Shown in pieces: positions 5,478 through 42,679 of a DNA stretch of 50,484 nucleotides. Location of the stretch: the NCBI GenBank assembly GCA_964576615.1, contig CAZNUU010000005.1, positions 1 to 50,484 on the forward strand, read 5' to 3'. Every line of letters starts with the position of its first letter. Within the stretch, counting starts at the first letter, position 1. A program made the position numbers and the translations under genes. The notes under the pieces are model-generated. The model did not search any database. It was given only the letters and a program-made list of their open reading frames with translations, and was not told the origin of the DNA. This stretch comes from an uncultured Candidatus Saccharibacteria bacterium. GTDB taxonomy: Bacteria > Patescibacteriota > Minisyncoccia > Phycocordibacterales > DATDWN01.

Positions 5478-5517
5478 AAGTAATTATTTTTGCAATTATA
5501 ACACAAAAATAACTACT

Positions 5518-5928
5518 TTACAATAAGTTTCCTATTACAAAATGAGACGTTATTTGCTTTATGGATTCTGAAAAATTAGTCCCAACATTTATAAACTCTG
5601 ATGGGATTTTTGCATCATCAAATATCTGCCTAACCCTCTCGTCTCTTTCTATTCGATCTTGTCGTTGATGAGATTTTCCATTTAACTCTATCGCAACTTT
5701 TGGTTCAAAATTCTTGTTGCATATAAGAAAATCTATATGTTTTGGTAAAACCTCATTCCTTCTTCCATAATAACCCTTTCCATGTAGAGGATAAACGATA
5801 TCTGCAATTCTCATTTTTGGGAAAATATAATATTCAGTAGGTATTTGATTTTTAAGTTCAAAGAAAAAAGCTGCTTCACTTTGATTCATTACCGAATTCT
5901 TTTTTGCATAACTCGCACGATTAGACAC
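5518..5928 (-). CDS. DUF2726 domain protein (N-terminus possibly truncated)
   Basis: MNQSEAAFFFEL..IFPKMRIADI..KHIDFLIC..AIELNGKSH..RDERV. The frame stays open up to 6027 and encodes a TM helix that has no ATG. Confidence 0.75.
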   Translation of the reverse strand: MSNRASYAKKNSVMNQSEAAFFFELKNQIPTEYYIFPKMRIADIVYPLHGKGYYGRRNEVLPKHIDFLICNKNFEPKVAIELNGKSHQRQDRIERDERVRQIFDDAKIPSEFINVGTNFSESIKQITSHFVIGNLL

Positions 5929-6027
5929 ACCCCTAGGATCGACCGGAAATTTTACTTCTAGATACAGAGCAACTGCAACCCCTATGATAATTATTATGAA
6001 TACAATTATGGACCTGGTCTTTGCTTT

Positions 6028-6507: not shown

Positions 6508-6759
6508 TTACGGCTTAGAGACATTAATTAAACCAAGTTTCTTTTCTCTCCGCCAACCCTTGATTTCTGTTTCCCTTCTTCTCGCTTCGATTAAAGTGCT
6601 AAATTTTTCCGAGTACAATAAAATTACTGGTCTTCTAATCTTTGTATAATGTGCACCCGACTTTGAACTATTATGCTGTTCGATTCTTCTCTCTAAATTA
6701 TTTGTACAACCAACATTCAAAGATTTATCTGAACATTTGAGTATATACGTAAAATACAT
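6508..6759 (-). CDS. Stand-alone GIY-YIG nuclease
   Basis: YFTYILKC..LNVGCTNNLERRIEQHN..YTKIRRPV.L.YSE..A.RRE.EIKGWRREKK. Confidence 0.9.
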   Translation of the reverse strand: MYFTYILKCSDKSLNVGCTNNLERRIEQHNSSKSGAHYTKIRRPVILLYSEKFSTLIEARRRETEIKGWRREKKLGLINVSKP

Positions 6760-6786
6760 AAAATAAATATTACCACTTATTCATTT

Positions 6787-6866
6787 CGCCACCTCTTCGC
6801 TACGCTCATTCGGTGTCTTCGTCGCTAAAGGGCCGAAGGCTCTGAGGAGCTTCGGGCGACGAAGAG
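6787..6866. repeat. REP-like multi-hairpin element upstream of GIY-YIG gene
   Basis: TCTTCGTCGC (6816-6825) pairs with GCGACGAAGA (6856-6865), with an inner CCGAAG/CTTCGG stem. Also contains CGCTACGCTCATT (6798-6810). Confidence 0.6.
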
Positions 6867-6892
6867 CTGTCCATCGTAAACGAAGTTAGAAC
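6867..6892 (+). repeat. Putative cassette recombination site
   Basis: CTGTCCATCGTAAACGAAGTTAGAAC has the same length and the same CTGTCC..ACGA.GTT.GAAC frame as the 3641 copy. Confidence 0.6.
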
Positions 6893-13518: not shown

Positions 13519-13527
13519 GAATGATAT

Positions 13528-13661
13528 TTAATGAGCGGAGCGATTATAAAAATCTTTATCCAGCCCTTTGGATTAATTGTACCACCAAAAACATCTGGAT
13601 TCTTCTTGTTACTGAATATATTATTTTGCATAATTTTGTATGTGAATCCAAAGGGCTGGAT
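13528..13661. repeat. Intergenic element: conserved 27-bp head plus 17-bp inverted repeat (copy 1)
   Basis: TTAATGAGCGGAGCGATTATAAAAATC (13528-13554), then arms 13558-13574 and 13645-13661, which are perfect reverse complements. Confidence 0.75.
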
Positions 13662-13692
13662 CATGAAAATTATCTCGCTACTCTCGTAATTT

Positions 13693-14373
13693 TCAAATGA
13701 TATATTTACCCTCTTGATCATCCCTGATAATTTTACCGTTCTCCATGGTGATAACACGCTTGCGTAGCGAGTCAATCACCCCCTTGTTGTGGGTAGTTAG
13801 AATCACAGTAGTGCCAAGATCATTAATTTTTTTCAAAATTTGTACAACATCAAAAGTGTTAAGTGGGTCAAGATTTCCGGTTGGCTCATCTGCCACAATA
13901 ACATCAGGTTGATTGACAATAGCCCGAGCAATTGAAACTCGTTGTTTCTCACCGCCGGATAGTTCGCCTGGAAAATTCCAAATTTTCTTGCCTAGATCCA
14001 CCAAGTCGAGAACGTGTGGCACATCAGCCTCAATCTCCTCGTCAGTTCTACCAGCCGCTTCCATGGCAAAAGCAATGTTCTCATATACATTTTTGTCAGG
14101 TAAAAGCCTGAAATCCTGGAAAACTACCCCGATTCTACGCCTAAATTCATTAACATCGTTCCTTTTGAGCTTGCCAATCTCCATGGAATCGAAGAAAACC
14201 TGTCCCTCTGTCGGTTTCTCCTCGCCCAGAAGCATTTTGATAAGAGTCGTCTTGCCTGCCCCAGAGTGCCCCACAACAGAAACAAACTCCTTAGGCGAGA
14301 TTTGGAGGGTAACATTGTCTAGTGCAATAGAGTTGTCTAGATATATTTTTGAAACTTTATCAAAGCGAATCAT
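13693..14373 (-). CDS. ftsE: Cell division ATPase FtsE
   Basis: GHSGAGKTT, VVFQDFRLL, LSGGEKQRV, ADEPTGNLDP. Confidence 0.93.
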   Translation of the reverse strand: MIRFDKVSKIYLDNSIALDNVTLQISPKEFVSVVGHSGAGKTTLIKMLLGEEKPTEGQVFFDSMEIGKLKRNDVNEFRRRIGVVFQDFRLLPDKNVYENIAFAMEAAGRTDEEIEADVPHVLDLVDLGKKIWNFPGELSGGEKQRVSIARAIVNQPDVIVADEPTGNLDPLNTFDVVQILKKINDLGTTVILTTHNKGVIDSLRKRVITMENGKIIRDDQEGKYII

Positions 14374-15322: not shown

Positions 15323-15393
15323 AGCCGAAGATGAGAATCGAACTCATGTTAGTACTTTACGAAAGTACCGTTCTGCCACTGAACTACTTCGGC
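15323..15393 (-). tRNA. tRNA-Thr(CGT), CCA not encoded
   Basis: GCCGAAG/CTTCGGC acceptor, GTTC/GAAC D-stem, GTACT-TTCGTAA-AGTAC anticodon arm, ATGAG-TTCGATT-CTCAT T-arm. Confidence 0.9.
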
Positions 15394-15647
15394 TTCATTT
15401 TAATATAGCCGTCTTTGATAATTTTCTCAATATAGTCTTTCCTTTTTAGTTTCTTTAATCTGCATTCTATATTCCTTGCGACTTTAAGAGAATCGGACTT
15501 CTGTGAAAACACCATGACCAAATCCTTCATTCTCTTTGTAGAATACGTGTGTCCATAATAATGTTGACTGATTCTTCTCTTTAAATCTGTAGTACTACCA
15601 ATATAAAAATTACCTTTTGAATTTTTAAGAATGTATACGTATCCCAT
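15384..15647 (-). CDS. Stand-alone GIY-YIG nuclease; stop codon overlaps tRNA-Thr 5' end
   Basis: MGYVYIL...FYIGST.DL.RR..QH...ST...E.RLKKLK. The TAG stop is tRNA nt 8-10. Confidence 0.88.
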   Translation of the reverse strand: MGYVYILKNSKGNFYIGSTTDLKRRISQHYYGHTYSTKRMKDLVMVFSQKSDSLKVARNIECRLKKLKRKDYIEKIIKDGYIKMKPK

Positions 15648-15652
15648 ATGAA

Positions 15653-15730
15653 CTACCAAAGCCGACGTTTCAGTCGGCTCCCCGACCCCCGAAATACTTC
15701 GTAGGGGCGTCGGGGCTGAGCTACTCTGGC
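15653..15730 (-). pseudogene. tRNA 5' fragment with hairpin insertion in the D-loop
   Basis: GCCAGAGTAGCTCAG (15730-15716), two GC-rich hairpins (CCCCGAC/GTCGGGG and AGCCGAC/GTCGGCT), then TTGGTAG. Confidence 0.65.
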
Positions 15731-22425: not shown

Positions 22426-23364
22426 TCAAATTACTTGAAACTCTTCAAATACTGATTTATATAAGTCCACTACCCTCTTTGCTTCTTTTTGGTCGATTCT
22501 GAAACCGCCACCCTCATGAGCAATTTGGTTTCTTATCTTGTGAGCTTCCCAAGCATTATCAATGGTCTTAAAATCACTTTTTTCTACAGCTTTTAATTTT
22601 TCACCAATTGTCTCACCGGGTAGAAACATCTTATCTAAAAGATTGCTTAAAATTATATCGGCCTCAAGTATAGCCTGTCGCCAATCGTTTTCTTTTGGTG
22701 AATCAATGAATGTTAGAACTCTCTCCCATTGTGGATTTTTTGGTGTTGCCACCGGCTTTGCCTCAATATAAAGCAAAAGTCTCTCTGCAGTACGGAGTTT
22801 AATTAACTCCCGTAAAAGAAGAGTGATCCCGATGACCGCAAGAATGGAAAGAATAATTATTATGAGTCTAATATAACTAACTAGATTAATAATCCAGAGT
22901 AGTATTCTTTCAAATAGACTTGGATTATTTTGAAGATATAAAATTCCGCTCTCTCTTACCCAACCATCCACCCCGGTATCATAATCCACATACCAAAATC
23001 GTAGCTCATCAATATCAACTGGTCCTTGTAAAATTTTGCCCTGTTCGAGAGATTTATGCTCACCGATTTTATTGCCATCTGGAGCATCGTATACATTTAC
23101 ATCATTTTTATTAAAGACTCTTACTCCGATTGGATTATCCAAAGCTGCAATTGGTAAACTATGAGCAAGGTAGACTCCTTCTTTGGTAAACGCTTTCCAG
23201 CCCTGGGAAAATAGTCTATTGTTGTGAACCCCTACCGCAATTGCATTAAGAAGATAAAGCACTAAAAAAACTACCACCAAAACAGAGATAATTTCAGTAA
23301 ACGGATCTTCCCATGCCGAAGATGAAGCTGGTGCCGGCGCAGGTTTTCCTTTGTCATCTGCCAT
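22426..23364 (-). CDS. Membrane protein with SH3-like segment and C-terminal HEPN-like RxxxxH domain
   Basis: TM helix, then WYVDYDTGVDGWV (SH3b-like), TM helix, then AILEAD..L..GETIGEKLK...AWEAHKIRNQIAHE. Confidence 0.65.
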   Translation of the reverse strand: MADDKGKPAPAPASSSAWEDPFTEIISVLVVVFLVLYLLNAIAVGVHNNRLFSQGWKAFTKEGVYLAHSLPIAALDNPIGVRVFNKNDVNVYDAPDGNKIGEHKSLEQGKILQGPVDIDELRFWYVDYDTGVDGWVRESGILYLQNNPSLFERILLWIINLVSYIRLIIIILSILAVIGITLLLRELIKLRTAERLLLYIEAKPVATPKNPQWERVLTFIDSPKENDWRQAILEADIILSNLLDKMFLPGETIGEKLKAVEKSDFKTIDNAWEAHKIRNQIAHEGGGFRIDQKEAKRVVDLYKSVFEEFQVI

Positions 23365-23373
23365 GGTCGATTT

Positions 23374-23505
23374 TTAATGAGTAGAGCGATTATAAAAATC
23401 CCCACCCAGCACCACTTTATTAATAATATAATCTTTCATATTTATACTGGACTCTCACCAAAAATATTATACCTTTTTGTTCTAATCAATAAAGTGGTGC
23501 TGGGT
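23374..23505. repeat. Intergenic element: conserved head plus 18-bp inverted repeat (copy 2)
   Basis: TTAATGAGTAGAGCGATTATAAAAATC (25/27 identical to copy 1), with perfect arms at 23404-23421 and 23488-23505. Confidence 0.75.
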
Positions 23506-23530
23506 AAAGAAAGTTATAGTCACAAGCTCC

Positions 23531-24952
23531 TTAATTTTCATTTAAAAAAATTTTACCAACTCTCAGCAGTAAATTTTCGCCACCGTGAGGCGCCATGAAT
23601 TGAATCCCAAGGGGCAGATTTTTTCCTTCTATATTCATAAAACCAGAAGGAATCGAGATAGCTGGCACTCCCACAATATTTGGCGTAACTGTAAAAATAT
23701 CTGCCAGATATACAGAGAGTGGATCTGTTTTGCCTCCTATTTTCCAAGGTGGAATTGGGGAAGTTGGAGTCAAAATTAAATCCACCTGAGAAAATATCTC
23801 TTTAAAATCTTCTCTCATTGCCCCCCTAGCCATTTGAGCTTGGCCATAATAAGCATCATAGTACCCCGACGAAAGCACATACGTGCCGAGTAAAATTCTT
23901 CTTTTTGCTTCAGCACCAAACCCCTCACTACGAGTTAAAAGGTAATCTGACAAAAGATCCTTGCCAGAGACGCGCAACCCATATTTCATTCCATCATAAC
24001 GAGCTAAGTTAGATGAGACTTCCGCAAAATTTACAATGTAATAAAGTGGCAAACAATATTTTATATTTGGTAATTTAATTTCTTTTATTTCAAAGCCTAG
24101 CTTTTTGAGATTTTCGACTGATTTTTTAAAATTTTCTAAAACATCTTTGTCTGTCCCCTCTGTTTCAACCAGATCCCAAGGAATTCCAATTGTAACTTTA
24201 TCTTTTTTCTTGGTCTCGTATGTGTTCTCTTTTATGGTAGTGCTGTCCTCTGGATCGTTACCCTTTATTACATTGTAAATCGTCTCGACATCATTAACTG
24301 TTTTTCCCAAAACCCCAACCTGCTCTAAAGAAGAAGCGGCTGCAACAATTCCATACCTCGATACTCTCCCATAAGTCGGTTTCAACCCTACGACTCCGCA
24401 AAACGATGACGGCAAGCGGACAGATCCACCTGTATCAGTTCCCAAGGCAGAGAGGGCCAGATTGGCTGAAACAGCACAGGCTGAACCTCCTGAAGTCCCC
24501 CCTGGAACTCGGCTAGTATCATGAGGATTCTTGGTGGGCCCGAAAGCGGAGTTTTCAGTTGAACTTCCAAGGGCAAACTCATCCATGTTTGTTCTGCCTA
24601 ATATCACGGCTCCTTGAGTTATTAATTTTTCTGATACGGTTGAGTTATAAGGAGCAACGTAATTCTCCAAGATCTTTGAGCCAGCTGAGGCTTTTTTACC
24701 GTTGACTAATATATTATCTTTTATGGCCAGAGGAATTCCCAAAAGCGGAGTACTTTCTCCTTTTTTAATTCTTTCATCTGCTGCTTTAGCTTGTTCTAAA
24801 ACATCAGCATACACCTCGAGATATGCATTTAACTCTTTGTTTTTTTCTTTTATGGCATCGAGATAGGCTTGGGCTAGCTCGACTGCGCTAAATTCTTTCT
24901 TGTCTAAGGCGATTCTAGCTTTTTCAATTGTAAGATTCTTGAGATCTATCAT
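23531..24952 (-). CDS. gatA: Asp/Glu-tRNA amidotransferase subunit A
   Basis: IAIKDNI, GRTNMDEFALGSSTENS, GTDTGGSVR, RILLGTYVLSSGYYDAYY. Confidence 0.95.
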   Translation of the reverse strand: MIDLKNLTIEKARIALDKKEFSAVELAQAYLDAIKEKNKELNAYLEVYADVLEQAKAADERIKKGESTPLLGIPLAIKDNILVNGKKASAGSKILENYVAPYNSTVSEKLITQGAVILGRTNMDEFALGSSTENSAFGPTKNPHDTSRVPGGTSGGSACAVSANLALSALGTDTGGSVRLPSSFCGVVGLKPTYGRVSRYGIVAAASSLEQVGVLGKTVNDVETIYNVIKGNDPEDSTTIKENTYETKKKDKVTIGIPWDLVETEGTDKDVLENFKKSVENLKKLGFEIKEIKLPNIKYCLPLYYIVNFAEVSSNLARYDGMKYGLRVSGKDLLSDYLLTRSEGFGAEAKRRILLGTYVLSSGYYDAYYGQAQMARGAMREDFKEIFSQVDLILTPTSPIPPWKIGGKTDPLSVYLADIFTVTPNIVGVPAISIPSGFMNIEGKNLPLGIQFMAPHGGENLLLRVGKIFLNEN

Positions 24953-35212: not shown

Positions 35213-35219
35213 AGCAAAA

Positions 35220-36932
35220 TTATAACATGTTCACTTCTTCAAACGGAATAATCTGATGCATGGCTTTAACAATTGCATCCTCTTTCATGGTGAGCATTCC
35301 CTTTGACCTTGCCAGTTTTGAGATTTCGATCTCATTACCACCCTTCAAGATGAGGTTCTCCAAATCCTTATCCATTTCCATAACCTCCATAACTGCAATC
35401 CTGCCTCTGGTACCATTTGGACACTCTGCACTTTCCCCTGTCTTATAAACATCTTTGGTAAAATCAATCTCTTCTAAGTACTTGGACGGCAGATCTTGAA
35501 ATTGTTTATCAATCATCATCTTTATACTACCTTCAACCGGAGTCTTTACCCCCGCCTCTGGACACAATTTAAGCGCGAGTCTCTGAGCCATAGCCAAAAT
35601 AAGTGTTGGTCCAATAAGATAAGGATCGATGCCCATATCAATAAGTCGCGGGATGACTCCTAAGGCGTTATTGGTGTGAATGGTGGAAAGAACCAAATGT
35701 CCGGTTAGAGCTGCCTGAATAGCTAGCTGAGCAGTTTCCTTGTCTCGTATCTCACCAACCATGATTACATCCGGGTCCTGTCTCAAGGTCGTTCTTAGAC
35801 CCGAGGCGAAAGTGTAACCAATTTCGGCTTGAACTTGGGATTGAGAAATTCCCTCGATGTTGTACTCGATCGGGTCTTCCAAAGACAGCACGTTTTGATG
35901 CTCTTTATCTACTTCGTTTAACATCGCATACAAAGTTGTAGTCTTTCCCGAACCAGTTGGACCGGAGATTAGAATTAAACCATAAGGTCTTTTTATCGCC
36001 TTTCTTATAAGACTAAGATTTTTAGTACTTAGGCCAAGATCATCTAAAGTTTTTATACCCTTCTCCTGATCCAAAAGTCTCATCACAACTTTTTCACCAA
36101 AATATGTTGGAAAAGTGGAAACACGGAAATCTATTTTTCTGCCTTCTACTCTGGTAGTGAAACGTCCGTCCTGTGGTTTTCTTTTTTCATCCAATCTCAT
36201 ATTGGAGAGAATTTTTATTCTAGCTACTACAGCTGGATGCGTTTTGAGAGGCAAGGTAAGGGATGTATTCATCACCCCATCTACACGAAAGCGGACTTTG
36301 ACTTGTTCCCGCCATGGTTCAATGTGAACGTCTGAAGCGTTACCGTCTGTGGCATAACGCAAAATGGTTGCCACTATTTTTGTAATTGGAGCATCCTCCG
36401 CAATTTGCTTGGATTTTTCAATCCCTATATCTTCTTCTTTTTCTTCAGCTTGTTGTGTCTCTGTGGTAAGTTCTGTTTCTAGTTCAGAGAGTGACTTAGA
36501 GACTTCAGCAGAAAGACCTTTGTATTGGGCAAAAACTTTATTGAAGTCAGCTTCACTTATGAGAAAAACCTTAAATGGCATGCCAACTTTTGAAGAGATA
36601 AAATTAAGCGCATCTTTTGCTTCAATGTCATCTGGGTCAACCATTCCAATTTCCAAAACCCCCGCGGAGACACCCAACGGCACGAAACGATAGTGCGCTG
36701 CAGAATCCTCTGGAATATAATAAAGAGTTTTTTCTGCAACTAACTCAGTAATATTACGAGTTGGAATATCAAAATACTCCCCCTTTGCTTCCAAGATATC
36801 ATGCGGGGAGACACCTCTTTTAATGAGGGCCTCTTCAATGGTTACTCCCTGCGCAACTGCCTCATCTGTAATTTTGGTTATTTCTTTTTTAGGGAATATA
36901 CCTTTATCTACAAGTATTTTAAGTATATCCAT
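35220..36932 (-). CDS. pilB: Assembly ATPase PilB (GspE family)
   Basis: N-terminal domain, ASDVHIEP, GPTGSGKTTT, RQDPDVIMVGEIRD, TGHLVLSTIHTN. Confidence 0.92.
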   Translation of the reverse strand: MDILKILVDKGIFPKKEITKITDEAVAQGVTIEEALIKRGVSPHDILEAKGEYFDIPTRNITELVAEKTLYYIPEDSAAHYRFVPLGVSAGVLEIGMVDPDDIEAKDALNFISSKVGMPFKVFLISEADFNKVFAQYKGLSAEVSKSLSELETELTTETQQAEEKEEDIGIEKSKQIAEDAPITKIVATILRYATDGNASDVHIEPWREQVKVRFRVDGVMNTSLTLPLKTHPAVVARIKILSNMRLDEKRKPQDGRFTTRVEGRKIDFRVSTFPTYFGEKVVMRLLDQEKGIKTLDDLGLSTKNLSLIRKAIKRPYGLILISGPTGSGKTTTLYAMLNEVDKEHQNVLSLEDPIEYNIEGISQSQVQAEIGYTFASGLRTTLRQDPDVIMVGEIRDKETAQLAIQAALTGHLVLSTIHTNNALGVIPRLIDMGIDPYLIGPTLILAMAQRLALKLCPEAGVKTPVEGSIKMMIDKQFQDLPSKYLEEIDFTKDVYKTGESAECPNGTRGRIAVMEVMEMDKDLENLILKGGNEIEISKLARSKGMLTMKEDAIVKAMHQIIPFEEVNML

Positions 36933-37820: not shown

Positions 37821-38426
37821 TTATTGACTTGGAGCTATCGCCTCGACTGCTTTTTTATACGAAACCACTTCGGGCAAAAGATTAGCCATAAAACTTACTG
37901 TGACATTGCCATCGTCTATTGGGCTGAAGTTTGAAAACTGTGCATTTTTTACAAAATCACTTTGGGTAAAGATATTCTGCTGTTGCACTAGTGCATTATA
38001 ACTTCTAGCTTGAGCCTTCATTGATATAGTAGATAACCCTGCAGCACTTTTGTAACTCAGGTTATCTATTTTCATATTTTTCAAAGTGTCACTCTCCATT
38101 AAATGGAGAAATTTGGAAACAACTACGTGGTTGTCCAGAAGAGTTTTAGCCGCCACCATCCTCGCATTGAAATCGAAAAGCTCCTTTATTTTATCTGGTT
38201 GAAAAGCAGCCCTGGCCTGATCTACTTTTTTGTCTCCGTCCGCAATTTGGCTCTGCAGGAGGCTTTTGTAGAAATAGAGGGCTCCGGCAGATAGGATAGT
38301 GACCAAGAAGATTATGGTGGCAATGATAGTAAATATATTTGTCTGCCTGACTACAGCAAACCCCGTAGATTGACCAGGCACAATCGGTTTTTTAGGAATG
38401 AACGATGTCTGAAACTTAGGTTCCAT
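37821..38426 (-). CDS. PilN-like protein
   Basis: MEPKFQTSFIPKK, TM helix, position between pilM and pilO. Start 38426. Confidence 0.7.
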   Translation of the reverse strand: MEPKFQTSFIPKKPIVPGQSTGFAVVRQTNIFTIIATIIFLVTILSAGALYFYKSLLQSQIADGDKKVDQARAAFQPDKIKELFDFNARMVAAKTLLDNHVVVSKFLHLMESDTLKNMKIDNLSYKSAAGLSTISMKAQARSYNALVQQQNIFTQSDFVKNAQFSNFSPIDDGNVTVSFMANLLPEVVSYKKAVEAIAPSQ

Positions 38427-38455
38427 CTTAGTTAAAATTATAATACAAATGCCCA

Positions 38456-38551
38456 AGTAGAGCTATAAAAACTGTGTATATCCGCACACTACACTTTGTT
38501 ACAGATTTCATCATGCACATAGTGCAATAACAAAGTTAGTGTGCGGATATA
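38456..38551. repeat. Intergenic element, degenerate head plus 15-bp inverted repeat (copy 3)
   Basis: AGTAGAGC-TATAAAAA head (3-nt deletion versus copy 2), perfect arms at 38477-38491 and 38537-38551, extended by an inner 9-bp pair. Confidence 0.6.
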
Positions 38552-38601
38552 AAAAGAGAAACTCCGCAAGGTGGGGTTGCGGAGTCCCCTTCCTTGCGGA
38601 G

Positions 38602-38733
38602 TCAGATGAGATGCAGTAGGCGAAGCACCATAGCGCCGATCACACCAACCACAGCCAGCACGCCTGCCCCGATGATGACCGGGTGGAGTCTGGTGTCGTT
38701 TTGTTCGGTTCTGGTGTCGTCAGTGATAGACAT
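38602..38733 (-). CDS. 43-aa GC-rich single-TM orphan peptide
   Basis: GGAGGGAGG RBS, MSITDDTRTEQNDTRLHPVIIGAGVLAVVGVIGAMVLRLLHLI, downstream hairpins. Confidence 0.55.
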   Translation of the reverse strand: MSITDDTRTEQNDTRLHPVIIGAGVLAVVGVIGAMVLRLLHLI

Positions 38734-39950: not shown

Positions 39951-40607
39951 ATGGTGAAAAGACTTACCTCTCTCTGGACATATTTTCTAGACTACATCCT
40001 ACCTCAAAGGTCTGACTTCAATATCGTAAAGAGACTAGACGAAAAAGACATCGAAAACTTACCCAAAGCAAGAGATGTCCAAGATTTAGATTGGATTCAT
40101 CCCCTATTCAATTACAAAGACAACAAAGTTAGGGCAATTATCTGGGAATTGAAATACAAAAACAATACTCGTGTTTTATATTTTATTGGCAGAGGTTTAT
40201 TCGAGGAAATAATTTATTTGATTTCGGATTTAGCCCTCTTCAATAACGACGCTGGATTTCTTTTAATTCCGATTCCAATTACATCTAATAGACGAAGGGA
40301 GCGTGGTTATAATCAAAGCGAGTATATTGCCAAAGCGATTATTGAAAACGATCTAGATCATAATCTGATTTACGCTCCCCAATTTCTCTCAAAGGTGAAA
40401 GAAACTCAACGTCAGAGTCACAGTGTTTCGAAAGAAGAGAGACAGAGAAATTTATCGGGGTGCTTTGCGGCAGACTCCAGAGTCGAGGGTAAATTTGTGA
40501 TCTTGATTGATGATGTGGTTACAACTGGAGCAACTTTGTCGGAAGCGAAAAAAACTTTACTCGAAAAAGGTGCCAGAGACGTTTACGCTTTTACGATTGC
40601 TCACTGA
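39951..40607 (+). CDS. comF: ComF family phosphoribosyltransferase-like competence protein
   Basis: PIP...RRRERGYNQS, LIDDVVTTGATL. Start 39951 with TATAAT 6 nt upstream. Confidence 0.9.
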   Translation: MVKRLTSLWTYFLDYILPQRSDFNIVKRLDEKDIENLPKARDVQDLDWIHPLFNYKDNKVRAIIWELKYKNNTRVLYFIGRGLFEEIIYLISDLALFNNDAGFLLIPIPITSNRRRERGYNQSEYIAKAIIENDLDHNLIYAPQFLSKVKETQRQSHSVSKEERQRNLSGCFAADSRVEGKFVILIDDVVTTGATLSEAKKTLLEKGARDVYAFTIAH

Positions 40608-40733
40608 AAATCTCATCGAGTCATGCCTTGAGAAAAGCCTAGGGAGCGCGACGGCGTGAGCTCGAGGAAAATTTCAGTAGAAATTTATCCGTGCTTTTCG
40701 AGAGATATGACGATGGTGAGATTTTCAGTGAGC
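40599..40733. mobile_element. MITE-like 135-bp element with 17-bp terminal inverted repeats
   Basis: GCTCACTGAAAATCTCA (40599-40615) and TGAGATTTTCAGTGAGC (40717-40733). The left arm contains the comF stop. Confidence 0.65.
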
Positions 40734-40739
40734 AAAATT

Positions 40740-41285: not shown

Positions 41286-41304
41286 GTGCATATTATAGCA
41301 TTTT

Positions 41305-41589
41305 CTATAAACCTAAATGGTGTACGCTCAAAATAAGAAGCCCGGTTGCTACGATTTGAGCAACTACAATTCTTTCCGTGATCATTTCATTTTCTCTCCA
41401 ATTTCTGAAGGCAAAATGAAGTACTAGTATCGGGGCTAAAACAAGCCATATTTGAAAAAGGTGGGCACCAACCCCCTCGTCTGGCTGGTAAACAACACCA
41501 TATTTTGAAACATCTAGAATAATCCAAGAAATAAAAACTACCGGCACAAGTATCGGCACCCAAGCCCCTGGTTTTTTTAAAAGATTCAT
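41305..41589 (-). CDS. Small three-TM membrane protein; ATG overlaps tRNA CCA
   Basis: MNLLKKPGAW..PDEGVGAHLFQIWL. The track start at 41682 lies across the tRNA. Confidence 0.65.
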   Translation of the reverse strand: MNLLKKPGAWVPILVPVVFISWIILDVSKYGVVYQPDEGVGAHLFQIWLVLAPILVLHFAFRNWRENEMITERIVVAQIVATGLLILSVHHLGL

Positions 41590-42000: not shown

Positions 42001-42090
42001 GGACAGATGGGTGAGTGGTTTAAACCAACGGTTTACTAAACCGTCGTACCTTAACCGGTACCGCGAGTTCGAATCTCGCTCTGTCCGCCA
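42001..42090 (+). tRNA. tRNA-Ser with ACT anticodon (A34), CCA encoded
   Basis: GGACAGA/TCTGTCC acceptor, ACGGT-TTACTAA-ACCGT anticodon arm, GTACC/GGTAC variable arm, G73. Confidence 0.9.
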
Positions 42091-42319: not shown

Positions 42320-42679
42320 ATGAAGACAGTGAATGCTTTCTTGCTCGGAACAGTGATCACACTCGGAGGTATCGCCTGCATCGAGTACCAGACGATCATC
42401 TCGCAGGCCAGCGAGCTCACGAGTCTGCGGACAGCAAAAGCAACCCTGCTCAAAGACGTGAACGAGACCAACCGGAAGTTTGGTGAAGCCGATCTCGCTC
42501 GGCAGATCAGCGAGGCCGCCTTCGAGAAGTGGCAGAAAGAATCAACCTATCTCTACACGCCGGCGATCTTGCGACAGCTGAAACCGGTGCCGCTCCCCGA
42601 CGGGACAAGCAAGGTGGTCTGGCCGAATCCGTACGACCTCCCCAAGCTTGTCGAGGCGTACTGCACCGCTCGACGCTGA
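42320..42679 (+). CDS. GC-rich orphan: TM plus coiled-coil protein
   Basis: AGGAGG RBS and a downstream GC hairpin (42714-42749). Confidence 0.6.
   Translation: MKTVNAFLLGTVITLGGIACIEYQTIISQASELTSLRTAKATLLKDVNETNRKFGEADLARQISEAAFEKWQKESTYLYTPAILRQLKPVPLPDGTSKVVWPNPYDLPKLVEAYCTARR

Follow-up and report, generated by a model that had tools for sequence, protein, structure and literature searches.

Leaders that hide a ribosome-binding site are among the closest described systems to the module reported here. In the thrS operator, the MS2/R17 coat-protein operator and the fourU thermometers, as would be the case in our module, ribosomes bind the 3′ strand of a hairpin that finishes at the start codon, a U run pairs with the purine- or A-rich landing site, and a sequence-specific loop offers a potential protein target. 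Phage T7 early-mRNA RNase III signals are likewise intercistronic, and their lower stem, asymmetric internal loop and upper stem correspond to the module's P0 helix, internal loop and P1 hairpin; cleavage at such a site would leave a 3′ hairpin on the message upstream. The rRNA boxB–boxA leader and the suhB BoxA share a third arrangement with the module: a hairpin, a U-rich spacer and a BoxA, here the BoxA-like GCUCAUUAAAA (10/11 positions). BoxA is bound single-stranded. At the DNA level, the module resembles the Correia elements (CREE) of Neisseria, and ERIC, BOX/RUP and REPINs, in being ~100–170 bp long, intergenic and often within operons, in having imperfect end inverted repeats with −10-like boxes that give a long hairpin once transcribed, and in its variable presence at orthologous sites. 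In mRNAs, BoxA sites lie within 50 nt of start codons, and ~25% of the associated functions are translation-linked (PMC5725501); the module likewise sits near the starts of translation and transcription genes. Passages in two sources describe CREE-type elements as able to change the expression of adjacent genes (PMC2649163, PMC10969869), and one of them describes Correia elements as bound by RNase III and cleaved or protected by it (PMC2649163).

We describe here a previously undescribed module of ~170 bases that occurs twice in the window (the entire 50,484-nt stretch of DNA analysed) and in many related ultra-small Parcubacteria/CPR bacteria, carries two conserved hairpins and finishes at a start codon. 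Its anatomy is an optional left arm, a P1 hairpin and a P2 hairpin adjoining the AUG. Our literature search found no earlier description of this element.

Anatomy of the two copies in the window

Both copies lie on the minus strand, and their parts are given in 5′ to 3′ order on that strand. The first, W1 (13519–13692), makes up the full ftsE–ftsX spacer, between the ftsE stop codon (13693–13695) and the ftsX ATG (13518–13516), both genes being recognized by Pfam; it scores 87.4 bits with the covariance model (E 6e-17). Its left arm AAATTACGAGAGTAGCGAGATAATTTTCATG (13662–13692) is an imperfect inverted copy of the head and forms the 5′ strand of P0. This arm contains a −10-like GATAAT 7 nt ahead of P1, and a promoter scan flagged TTGAAA-16-GATAAT. 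There follow the P1 5′ arm ATCCAGCCCTTTGGATT (13645–13661), a 70-nt, 73% AT loop unlike the loops of other copies (13575–13644) and the P1 3′ arm (13558–13574). P2 then comprises the U-run 5′ strand AAAGATTTTTA (13547–13557), the near-invariant loop TAATCGCTCCGCTCAT (13531–13546), which is also the 3′ strand of P0 and holds most of a TATAAT, and the 3′ strand TAAATATCATTC (13519–13530), an A-rich leader with the ATG immediately 3′ of it.

The second copy, W2 (23365–23533), scores 106.3 bits (E 3e-21) and runs from the gatA stop codon (TAA, 23531–23533, included in the module) to an ATG at 23364–23362. It consists of the left arm TAAGGAGCTTGTGACTATAACTTTCTTT (23506–23533), the P1 5′ arm ACCCAGCACCACTTTATT (23488–23505), a 66-nt, 77% AT loop (23422–23487), the P1 3′ arm (23404–23421) and a P2 of −6.5 kcal/mol made up of the 5′ strand GGGGATTTTTA (23393–23403), the loop TAATCGCTCTACTCAT (23377–23392) and the A-rich 3′ strand TAAAAATCGACC (23365–23376), after which the ATG follows. 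The downstream gene encodes a 312-aa membrane protein to which no family could be assigned; the initial annotation had called it HEPN-like, and a Pfam search found neither HEPN nor any other domain.

What had been reported of the two copies themselves was reproduced: heads at 13528–13554 and 23374–23400 that agree at 25 of 27 positions, perfect P1 arms of 17 bp (13558–13574 with 13645–13661) and 18 bp (23404–23421 with 23488–23505), AT-rich loops of 66–70 nt, and identical spacing of 3 nt from head to arm and 9 nt from head to start codon. Two parts had been overlooked, namely the left arm, which reaches back to the upstream stop codon, and P2, a second hairpin within the sequence treated as the head.

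The complete W1 and W2 spacers are homologous (local alignment score of 52 versus 18 ± 2.6 for shuffles). Their left arms agree at 28 of 38 positions, and their loops are not significantly alike. The head pattern matched twice in the window and never in 100 shuffles; the window has 4 perfect inverted repeats of ≥15 bp with a 20–150-nt spacer, and none of 20 shuffles has any. A scan for intrinsic terminators, defined as a GC-rich stem with a 3–8-nt loop and a T-run within 0–2 nt, gave no terminator-like site in either spacer.

Two covarying hairpins define a family in relatives

Pattern scans for the exact head hit 9 GTDB contigs and 18 metagenome contigs, yielding 24 distinct copies on contigs of Nomurabacteria, Zambryskibacteria and further Parcubacteria; since the head was itself the search query, its near-invariance is partly a selection effect. 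Across Parcubacteria/Paceibacteria the module measures about 75–200 nt. In 20 of the 24 copies, a same-strand ATG lies 13–22 nt past the ...CTC of the head, and most copies stop at the ATG of a housekeeping gene. These genes encode ribosomal proteins L4, L6, L11, S9, S18 and S19, EF-P, NusA, RpoC, RecA, a PilC-like protein and FtsX (three times), together with an L16 called from its N-terminus only, a 30-aa fragment that has no Pfam hit. Three copies lie away from start codons: L025 is followed by ~480 nt of structured non-coding sequence, L009b has a terminator-like hairpin 3′ of the module, and L020_5918 is a degenerate copy lying antisense to the end of a gene. The 50-kb window holds only 2 copies, and four 20-kb loci examined in relatives contain none. 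At the gathering thresholds of its families, Rfam 15 recognized nothing but tRNAs in the window; W1 searched at E ≤ 10 gave only sub-threshold generic hairpins (miRNA-precursor matches), and no family was matched at the copies in 26 loci. Two viral matches to the head were set aside as chance, since they lie inside coding sequence and have no hairpin.

P1 is a stem of 12–21 bp, nearly all Watson–Crick, that occurs in many different sequences. Copies agree in its base, A[C/U]CC...GG[G/A]U, with a C–G to U–A swap at position 2 and a U.G intermediate, whereas the distal stem and the AT-rich loop (30–113 nt) vary freely; the gap from P1 to the T-run is 5 nt. The loops of L003 and L008 cannot be aligned with each other despite identical arms, and L005 (rpsI) and L006 (rplD) share loop homology across different loci (z 5.5).

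P2 is an A–U hairpin, GAUGAUUUUUA/UAAAAAUCAAUC, that adjoins the AUG and closes a near-invariant 16-nt C/U-rich loop, UAAUCGCUCCGCUCAU. Pairing is kept in 95% of cells, and the pair 131–168 occurs as AU in 12 copies, GC in 4 and CG in 1. An inserted U in L011 pairs with an A that is otherwise bulged, and L026 and L002 delete that A; in the diverged L009b, the stem has been rewritten as CAAAAUUCA/UGAAUUUUG with pairing preserved. Predicted stabilities range from −6.5 to −10.6 kcal/mol (z −2.3 to −4.5). The P2 sequence also differs within one genome (AAA/TTC in W1, GGG/ACC in W2), which disfavours an explanation by protein half-sites.

RNAalifold predicted P1 and P2 independently from 11 operon-internal copies, with 11 of 25 pairs compensated. 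These compensatory changes in both stems, and the copies outside the window, favour the proposal in the initial annotation of a structured RNA family selected for structure; neither of the outcomes that it had named as refuting, a lack of further copies and a lack of covarying stems, was seen. The folding strand is not proven, because single mismatches show no G.U bias on the coding strand, deviant P2 pairs are mostly A.C and P0 has three fixed A.C/C.A columns; the strand call from G.U versus A.C is mixed.

The left arm is confined to operon-internal copies and absent at operon starts. It forms with the head an imperfect inverted repeat of ~20 nt in which 77% of cells are paired, compared with 31–44% when the two are slid against each other, and the head varies at just two positions, both of them compensated, in L006 and L005. 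Covariation across P0 falls short of significance, its score being reached by 86 of 500 shuffles. For most operon-internal copies, the predicted fold of minimum free energy is the extended P0/P1 hairpin. In place of the left arm, copies that follow a terminator have ordinary promoters 5′ of P1: TGCTATAAT in L022, TGGTATAAT in L002 and TTGACC-17-TATAGT in L013.

A candidate translational operator and its rivals

We favour reading the module as a cis-acting RNA leader, a putative translational operator that sequesters an A-rich landing site, and put this at slightly less than even odds (roughly 45%). The setting is a lineage in which the window genes mostly have no Shine–Dalgarno sequence and the 16S genes in L037 and L038 end in ...GCTGCTCGTGGA(A/T)ATTTTCAAATTG, with no CCUCC. 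Four steps of this scheme are inferred: transcription of the module, control of initiation by P2, recognition of the loop by a factor, and what the left arm does. Transcription would take in the downstream gene, beginning at a promoter just 5′ of P1 or running on from the gene upstream, and the transcript would fold into P1 and P2 as neighbouring hairpins. P1 is probably a structural, stabilizing or protein-binding element. The A-rich stretch UAAAAAUCAAUC 5′ of the AUG is a likely ribosome landing site; P2 would pair it with the U-run GAUGAUUUUUA and, when closed, hide it. A conserved trans-acting factor may recognize the invariant loop and set the balance between open and closed forms across the housekeeping gene set. 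In operon-internal copies, the left arm could pair with the loop region as P0, which excludes P2, so read-through transcripts would either free the landing site or form a long duplex for processing. The module would spread by duplication.

Several observations sit awkwardly with this operator. P2 of W1 is a weak outlier at −1.5 kcal/mol, and the long, perfect Watson–Crick arms of P1 could reflect maintenance of a palindrome at the DNA level. A search for RNA sequencing runs returned none. No partner for the invariant loop emerged from rRNA complementarity, as duplex energies of the P2 loop and head with 16S, 23S and 5S rRNA of two relatives were no better than those of shuffled queries. The candidate also departs from known sequestering leaders: it would hide an A-run rather than a Shine–Dalgarno sequence, one and the same operator stands ahead of 15 or more unrelated genes across many genera, and a large, variable hairpin and an optional anti-loop arm accompany it. 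We dropped a hammerhead, a K-turn (GUGAUGA box) and mimicry of the initiator-tRNA anticodon loop by eye, as the partner motifs that each requires are absent.

Almost nothing is known about how transcription and translation start in CPR/Parcubacteria, whose members are uncultured. A nearly invariant 45-nt sequence shared across genera at key housekeeping start codons, with covarying helices, provides a testable handle. If the module is an operator, it would define a global regulon and point to its missing regulator; that a single factor could switch the whole expression machinery, as a mobile, structure-based translational regulon in a lineage without the SD/anti-SD interaction, strikes us as an unlikely extension. 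Whichever reading holds, the module is a candidate new RNA family and a candidate signal for driving expression once genetic tools are built for these bacteria.

The best-placed rival, which we consider rather unlikely, is a promoter-bearing MITE-like DNA element whose left arm and head would be terminal inverted repeats for a transposase. Its insertion between genes would bring in a promoter and a short A-rich leader, the head TATAAT and its mirrored counterpart in the left arm would serve as outward or inward −10 boxes, the hairpins would be a by-product of palindromic DNA, and any parent IS would carry GAGCGRAGCGAYTATA ends. Inverted repeats of the expected kind (~20 nt, imperfect) do lie at both ends, the stems are perfectly Watson–Crick, and the covariance model also matches the reverse strand at 30–39 bits. 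The module is present or absent at orthologous ftsE–ftsX and gatA–next spacers. Between ftsE and ftsX, where the initial annotation had suggested comparing relatives, the window, L003 and L011 have the module, L029, L030 and L035 have a spacer of 8 nt, and L028, L031, L034 and L036 have unrelated inserts; the module has thus been gained and lost. Also in keeping with a mobile element are the loop homology between the rpsI and rplD loci and the ‘wrong’ orientation of the degenerate L020_5918. As to a promoter, the head contains a perfect TATAAT, other insert families in the spacers of these genomes also end in TATAAT plus ~25 nt, and many window genes have a −10 box of their own near the ATG. 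A mobile promoter or leader cassette would show how operons are rewired in streamlined genomes.

Against mobility by transposition, target-site duplication is inconsistent, a TTAA-like direct repeat enclosing no more than 4 of the 12 operon-internal copies (flanks AAAWTMAS on the left and ATTAAAAA on the right), and no locus examined contained a transposase or an IS with such ends. The copies compared within a genome are not near-identical: W1 is an old paralogue of W2, and L003 and L008 have loops that defy alignment. Conservation also continues past the inverted repeat up to the ATG. Unlike CREE-type MITEs, the module has neither a consistent target duplication nor near-identical copies in high number, the interior of its P1 loop cannot be aligned even within a genome between copies with identical arms, its orientation and distance to the start codon are fixed, it has an independently covarying P2 adjoining the AUG, and it exists in a form lacking the left arm. 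The phylum-level group in which it occurs differs as well and goes unmentioned in a 183,000-genome MITE survey. CREE are marked by a TA duplication, 26-bp Correia repeats, an IHF site and RNase III cleavage; the module shows no sequence similarity to them and no TA duplication.

The promoter part of this rival fares worse. The TATAAT in the heads of W1 and W2 has no −35 box at 16–18 nt and was not called by the promoter scan; TTTTTATAAT lacks TGn, and one subfamily has a TTGACG in P1 that is only 13–14 nt from the head TATAAT. Clade promoters have both elements, and the clade's rRNA promoters read TTGACT-17-TATAAT, by which standard the head is a poor promoter; a −10-only promoter would still be conceivable. 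P2 covariation joins positions on either side of TATAAT, a pattern that a promoter leaves unexplained, and operon-start copies have separate promoters of their own 5′ of P1. The initial annotation had offered a mobile promoter-bearing element or a structured RNA family. The latter is the better supported, the promoter lacks support, and mobility is backed only as gain and loss at orthologous spacers, without the consistent target duplications, partner transposase or near-identical copies within a genome that transposition would leave.

A second rival, which we regard as improbable, is an intercistronic processing and insulator site for RNase III or another endonuclease. On read-through RNA, P0 and P1 would form an interrupted duplex of ~35–40 bp with an 8 × 9-nt internal loop, whose cleavage would give the upstream cistron a protective 3′ hairpin and free the downstream cistron with an A-rich leader; the 5′-monophosphate ends left by processing would fall in GAUGAUUUU. 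The predicted P0/P1 fold of most operon-internal copies, the restriction of the left arm to those copies, and the resemblance of lower stem, asymmetric internal loop and upper stem to phage T7 sites all favour such a site. The passage on Correia elements cited above provides a precedent for RNase III binding with cleavage or protection (PMC2649163). Compared with the T7 signals, however, the module's upper hairpin has a 30–113-nt loop, and many copies have no lower stem. Copies without the left arm keep P1 and P2, so P0 processing cannot be the core function; P0 shows no significant covariation, and the invariant loop sequence and P2 covariation are left unexplained.

Somewhat less probable again is a Nus cassette like that of rRNA leaders, in which P1 would correspond to the boxB hairpin and GCUCAUUAAAAA to a BoxA for NusB–S10, acting by antitermination or, as at E. 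coli suhB, by Nus-dependent translational repression of expression-machinery genes. The module's gene set is indeed expression machinery, and GCTCATTAAAA matches 10 of 11 positions of GYTCTTTAANA, itself a gamma-proteobacterial consensus (PMC5725501). The relatives' 16S leaders have a hairpin ending in GGUGAUUUUUA, followed 10 nt later in L037 by the BoxA-like GUUCAUUGAAA, an order and spacing that match P1-GAUGAUUUUUA-N10-GCUCAUUAAAA in the module; a P1-type hairpin, ACCCAGUCAAAU...AUUUGACGGGGU, occurs in the L038 23S leader, and the L025 copy precedes a non-coding structured RNA. The match is nonetheless short, AT-rich and found post hoc. The BoxA-like motifs in the relatives' rRNA leaders, four in number, share UUGA(A/C)A whereas every module copy reads UUAAAA, which thus fails the clade's own BoxA consensus at an invariant G. 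Homology of the head to rRNA leaders was rejected, as local alignments were no better than shuffles (74–94 of 500). Whereas BoxA in rRNA leaders is single-stranded when bound, the module's version sits in a hairpin loop and stem, and P2 pairing finds no explanation here either.

We give very little credence to a gene on the opposite (plus) strand, either an antisense RNA or a small hydrophobic protein starting MSGAIIKI, which the head encodes in reverse complement. W1 and W2 are indeed crossed on that strand by open frames of 52 and >72 codons, the AGC/AGT difference between heads is synonymous in this frame, and the A.C mismatches fixed in P0 would there become G.U pairs. In the 20 remaining copies the frame is 11–51 codons long and conservation stops at residue 10, which largely refutes the protein, and the promoter would have to sit within unrelated downstream genes. 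Scarcely credible, finally, is an invertible promoter switch or integron attC-like site with P1 arms as recombinase sites around a flipping or recombining segment: perfect inverted repeats do surround a short AT-rich segment and the arms vary between copies as attC stems do, but contigs of two metagenomes (X1–X3) held no joints, strand changes, alternative orientation or deletion variants (assembled contigs drop rare variants), 30–113 nt is a very small loop to invert, the RYYYAAC/GTTRRRY core sites of attC are absent, neither an integrase nor an invertase was found nearby, and the flanks are core housekeeping genes (ftsE/ftsX, gatA, ribosomal protein genes) rather than cassettes.

Other sites in the window

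Two further resemblances had been proposed within the window. The head was said to be close to CGCTACGCTCATT at 6798, in a GIY-YIG hairpin element; the likeness is at chance level, with 1.25 matches expected for the degenerate pattern allowing up to 1 mismatch, and the site has neither TATAAT nor the family hairpin. A third copy had also been counted ahead of pilN (38424–38562). The HMM and the covariance model with filters off recover W1 and W2 alone, which leaves two copies, and the pilN site gave no tail-HMM match at E ≤ 50 and no covariance-model match at E ≤ 10 with filters off. Aligned over the whole element with W2, its score was marginal (equalled by 27 of 500 shuffles). We do not count this doubtful site (38427–38560, minus strand) as a member, and regard it as at best a decayed relative of the module. 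It retains a long hairpin (38472–38494 with 38534–38556) with an ATCC...GGAT base, then TTTTTATA and, across a gap, GCTCTACT, and it has its own TATTATAAT 13 nt 5′ of the pilN-like ATG.

Two window copies of a wider family

Two intergenic spacers of the window carry copies of one module, read on the minus strand, the strand of all genes around them. W1 (13519-13692) accounts for the whole of the 174 nt that separate the ftsE stop codon (13693-13695) from the ftsX ATG (13518-13516). W2 (23365-23533) takes in the gatA stop codon (23531-23533) at its upstream end and finishes next to the ATG (23364-23362) of the following gene, which encodes a 312-aa protein with no Pfam match. Their geometry was as described in the initial annotation: heads (the conserved 3' part containing TATAAT) identical at 25/27 positions, perfect arms of 17 and 18 bp, loops of 70 and 66 nt (73% and 77% AT) and, in both copies, gaps of 3 nt from head to arm and 9 nt from head to start codon. 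The head pattern occurred twice in the window versus 0 times in 100 shuffles, and perfect inverted repeats (≥15 bp, spacer 20-150 nt) numbered 4 versus none in 20 shuffles. The two spacers are homologous end to end (local alignment score 52 versus 18 ± 2.6 for shuffles), and the observation is real for these two copies. A supposed third copy before a pilN-like gene has a similar layout, but its similarity is marginal (27/500 shuffles), and both a tail HMM and a covariance model with filters off missed it, leaving a window count of two. A 13-mer near a GIY-YIG gene, also likened to the head, matched at chance level. GC-rich nested hairpins upstream of two small GIY-YIG genes (hairpins 6780-6880 and 15660-15700; genes 6508-6759 and 15384-15659) are unrelated to the family. 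A fourth long-range hairpin of the window (40597-40735), located between two convergent genes, has no head; its inverted repeat is perfect over 19 bp and encloses a GC-rich loop of 101 nt.

Further copies were found by exact-pattern scans for the head, which detected it in 9 species-representative contigs (Candidatus Nomurabacteria, Zambryskibacteria and other Patescibacteria MAGs; one chance match lay inside a Flavobacteriaceae gene) and in 18 contigs from metagenomes, of which two matched by chance. With diverged copies collected by HMM and covariance model, the family reached 24 distinct copies. In the two rock metagenomes holding the window, depth over the head was two to four times the depth over the flanks; the extra contigs there share the head only, and one precedes an L14-like start. 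The module matched no Rfam family, and the literature, a 183,000-genome MITE survey among it, yielded no description of it. The family is widespread and, on all checks made, undescribed.

Three helices of the module

On the coding strand, the consensus opens with a stop codon and AAAWTAASGAGCGAAGCGACTATAWTTTTnTT, followed by the 5' arm of a long hairpin, P1, an AT-rich loop of 30-113 nt, the P1 3' arm and GATGATTTTTA TAATCGCTCCGCTCAT TAAAAATCAAYC ATG. Three helices, P0, P1 and P2, are laid out along it. P1 has 12-21 bp, nearly all Watson-Crick, with a conserved base (ACCCAGC..., ATCCAGC... or ACCCC(A)GUC...) and highly varied sequence above; at position 2, C-G becomes U-A in three lineages and U.G in a fourth. 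P1 loops are unconstrained: two copies from one MAG, L003 and L008 (L numbers denote contigs or loci of related Parcubacteria), agree at 34/38 left-arm, 15/15 P1 and 42/42 tail positions, and their loops are unalignable.

P2, overlooked by the initial annotation, pairs GAUGAUUUUUA with UAAAAAUCAAUC around a 16-nt loop, UAAUCGCUCCGCUCAU, and its last pair adjoins the AUG. In the alignment, 95% of P2 cells are paired, one pair reading AU 12 times, GC 4 times and CG once. L011 has an inserted U, which pairs with an A that is bulged in other copies and deleted in L026 and L002, and the diverged copy L009b has its stem rewritten as CAAAAUUCA/UGAAUUUUG with pairing kept. The stems covary, in keeping with the structured RNA family originally proposed: RNAalifold on 11 copies independently gave P1 and P2, with 11/25 pairs compensated. 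In most copies, P2 energies lie between -6.5 and -10.6 kcal/mol; in W1 the value is only -1.5.

The left arm repeats the head imperfectly and in inverted orientation, and P0 is the pairing of the two: 77% of cells pair, versus 31-44% when slid. Only two head positions vary, and these are compensated in L006 and L005; covariation in P0 was not significant. Because their strands overlap or interleave, P0 and P2 would be mutually exclusive on topological grounds.

Placement before genes and turnover

In 20/24 copies, ...CTC is followed 13-22 nt later by a same-strand ATG. The genes downstream encode FtsX (three genomes), L4, L6, S19, S9, L11, S18, EF-P, NusA, RpoC, RecA, a PilC-like protein, a methyltransferase, an NYN protein and membrane proteins, and L16 by its N-terminus only (a 30-aa fragment without a Pfam match). 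Operon-internal copies begin directly after the upstream stop codon and possess the left arm. Copies after a terminator have no left arm; ahead of P1 they carry sequences resembling ordinary promoters: TGCTATAAT in L022, TGGTATAAT in L002 and TTGACC-17-TATAGT in L013. Three copies are exceptions to start-codon placement. In L025 (9400-9880, minus), the head copy is directly followed by ~480 nt that are ORF-free, strongly structured (z -5.8) and without an Rfam match, and that may constitute an undescribed non-coding RNA or long leader. L009b (L009 7560-7740, minus) has P1 and a compensated P2, then a terminator-like hairpin in place of the start codon, and could be a stand-alone small RNA. The third, L020_5918, is a degenerate copy facing a convergent gene, into whose 3' end it points. 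Modules of a second family, likewise intergenic and close to start codons, occur in the MAG of L008 (minus): a different 65-95 nt repeat, made up of five TACGAAT units and then AATTAAATTCAAAAATACA-ATG, recurs in seven spacers within the S10/spc ribosomal protein cluster, preceding rplV, rplP, rpmC, rpsQ, rplN, rplE and others.

Orthologous spacers were fetched via FtsX homologues at 75-81% identity. Between ftsE and ftsX, relatives have 8 nt (L029, L030 and L035) or unrelated inserts of 79-198 nt (L028, L031, L034 and L036), while the window, L003 and L011 have the module with quite different P1 sequences; the spacer after gatA measures 51-58 nt in relatives versus 166 nt in the window. These differences indicate insertion or loss of the module over times comparable to the divergence of genera. 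Such gain and loss, along with terminal inverted repeats, perfect stems and TATAAT, would suit a promoter-bearing MITE, close to the mobile element first suggested. However, no consistent target duplication, transposase or young copies were found, the first and last distinguishing the module from MITEs, and this reading leaves P2, the fixed ATG distance and the missing duplication unaccounted for; we consider it doubtful. The ftsE-ftsX spacer is itself a hot spot, relatives bearing at least three other unrelated inserts (L028 9858-10000; L031 9922-10000; L034 722-919; L036 3185-3317). Those of L031 and L034 have a 'ctaattcctaatt...ttagtataattagatcaatta' element in common, and all four end in TATAAT ~10-30 nt before ATG.

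Expression context and candidate functions

Window genes mostly have no Shine-Dalgarno (SD) sequence, and many have TGnTAnAAT 5-9 nt before ATG (for example, 5478-5510, 35213-35240 and 41292-41310), which looks like a leaderless arrangement. Strong SDs are exceptions, in GC-richer stretches at 42320 and at a small ORF at 38733. This GC-rich ORF (38600-38733, minus; ~44 aa, hydrophobic; SD GGAGGGAGG) lies between pilM and the pilN-like gene with its own terminator (38561-38602) and, in a genome otherwise without SDs, looks foreign. Two related loci with 23S, 5S and 16S genes, L037 and L038, were obtained via a protein encoded beside a 5S gene. Compared with the canonical end, GGAUCACCUCCUUA, their 16S 3' ends (L037 20440-20520; L038 20470-20550) read ...GGAAGCTGCTCGTGGA(A/T)ATTTTCAAATTG (also given as ...GGAAGCTGCTCGTGGA(A/T)ATTTTCAAATTGAAC) and contain no CCUCC anti-SD, in agreement with the near-absence of SDs before window genes. 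In these loci, 16S is unlinked from 23S-5S and lies ~9 kb farther downstream. The rRNA genes there have canonical promoters (TTGACT-17-TATAAT); at the head, TATAAT is accompanied by no -35 and no TGn, and the module differs in defining features from sigma-70 promoters and from intrinsic terminators.

We favour a cis-acting RNA leader, with a probability of roughly 0.45, because P2 covariation spans TATAAT and extends to the nucleotide just before the AUG (-1). Covariation across TATAAT is not explicable by a promoter, nor are the differences between copies within a genome by a protein half-site. In such a leader, P1 would be a hairpin close to the 5' end with a structural or stabilising role and P2 an operator hiding an A-rich stretch, the likely ribosome landing site in an SD-less lineage, with the invariant P2 loop a putative binding site for a conserved factor. 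Where the module is internal to an operon, its left arm could pair with the loop region (P0) and thereby exclude P2. Overall, in its mode of action the module would most resemble a leader or operator hairpin, and its spread is somewhat MITE-like.

An RNase III processing site would agree with the P0-loop-P1 architecture but does not fit copies without a left arm, and we regard it as quite unlikely. Very unlikely, in our estimation, is an rRNA-leader-like boxB/boxA cassette: GCUCAUUAAAA agrees with GYTCTTTAANA at 10/11 positions (PMC5725501) and 16S leaders of relatives carry hairpin-GGUGAUUUUUA-N10-GUUCAUUGAAA, yet the module reads UUAA at a point where all four BoxA motifs from the clade's own rRNA leaders read UUGA, and its similarity to rRNA leaders as a whole was not above shuffles. 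Loop pairing with rRNA was not supported, an opposite-strand ORF was rejected, and an inverton or attC reading drew no support from contigs of the two rock metagenomes.

Among other RNA features, the 23S rRNA leader of L038 contains a headless P1-type hairpin (ACCCAGTCAAAT...ATTTGACGGGGT; 5887-5943), and that of L037 a different hairpin at the matching place, followed by the same AAAGTATTTTCA as in L038. LOOT RNA genes occur in two relatives (L030 19999-20111; L031 17491-17606), and a group I intron lies next to a LAGLIDADG gene in a third (L029 3895-4114). In the window, ARAGORN predicted a tRNA-Ser (42001-42090) with anticodon ACT, whose A at the wobble position is unusual for bacteria.
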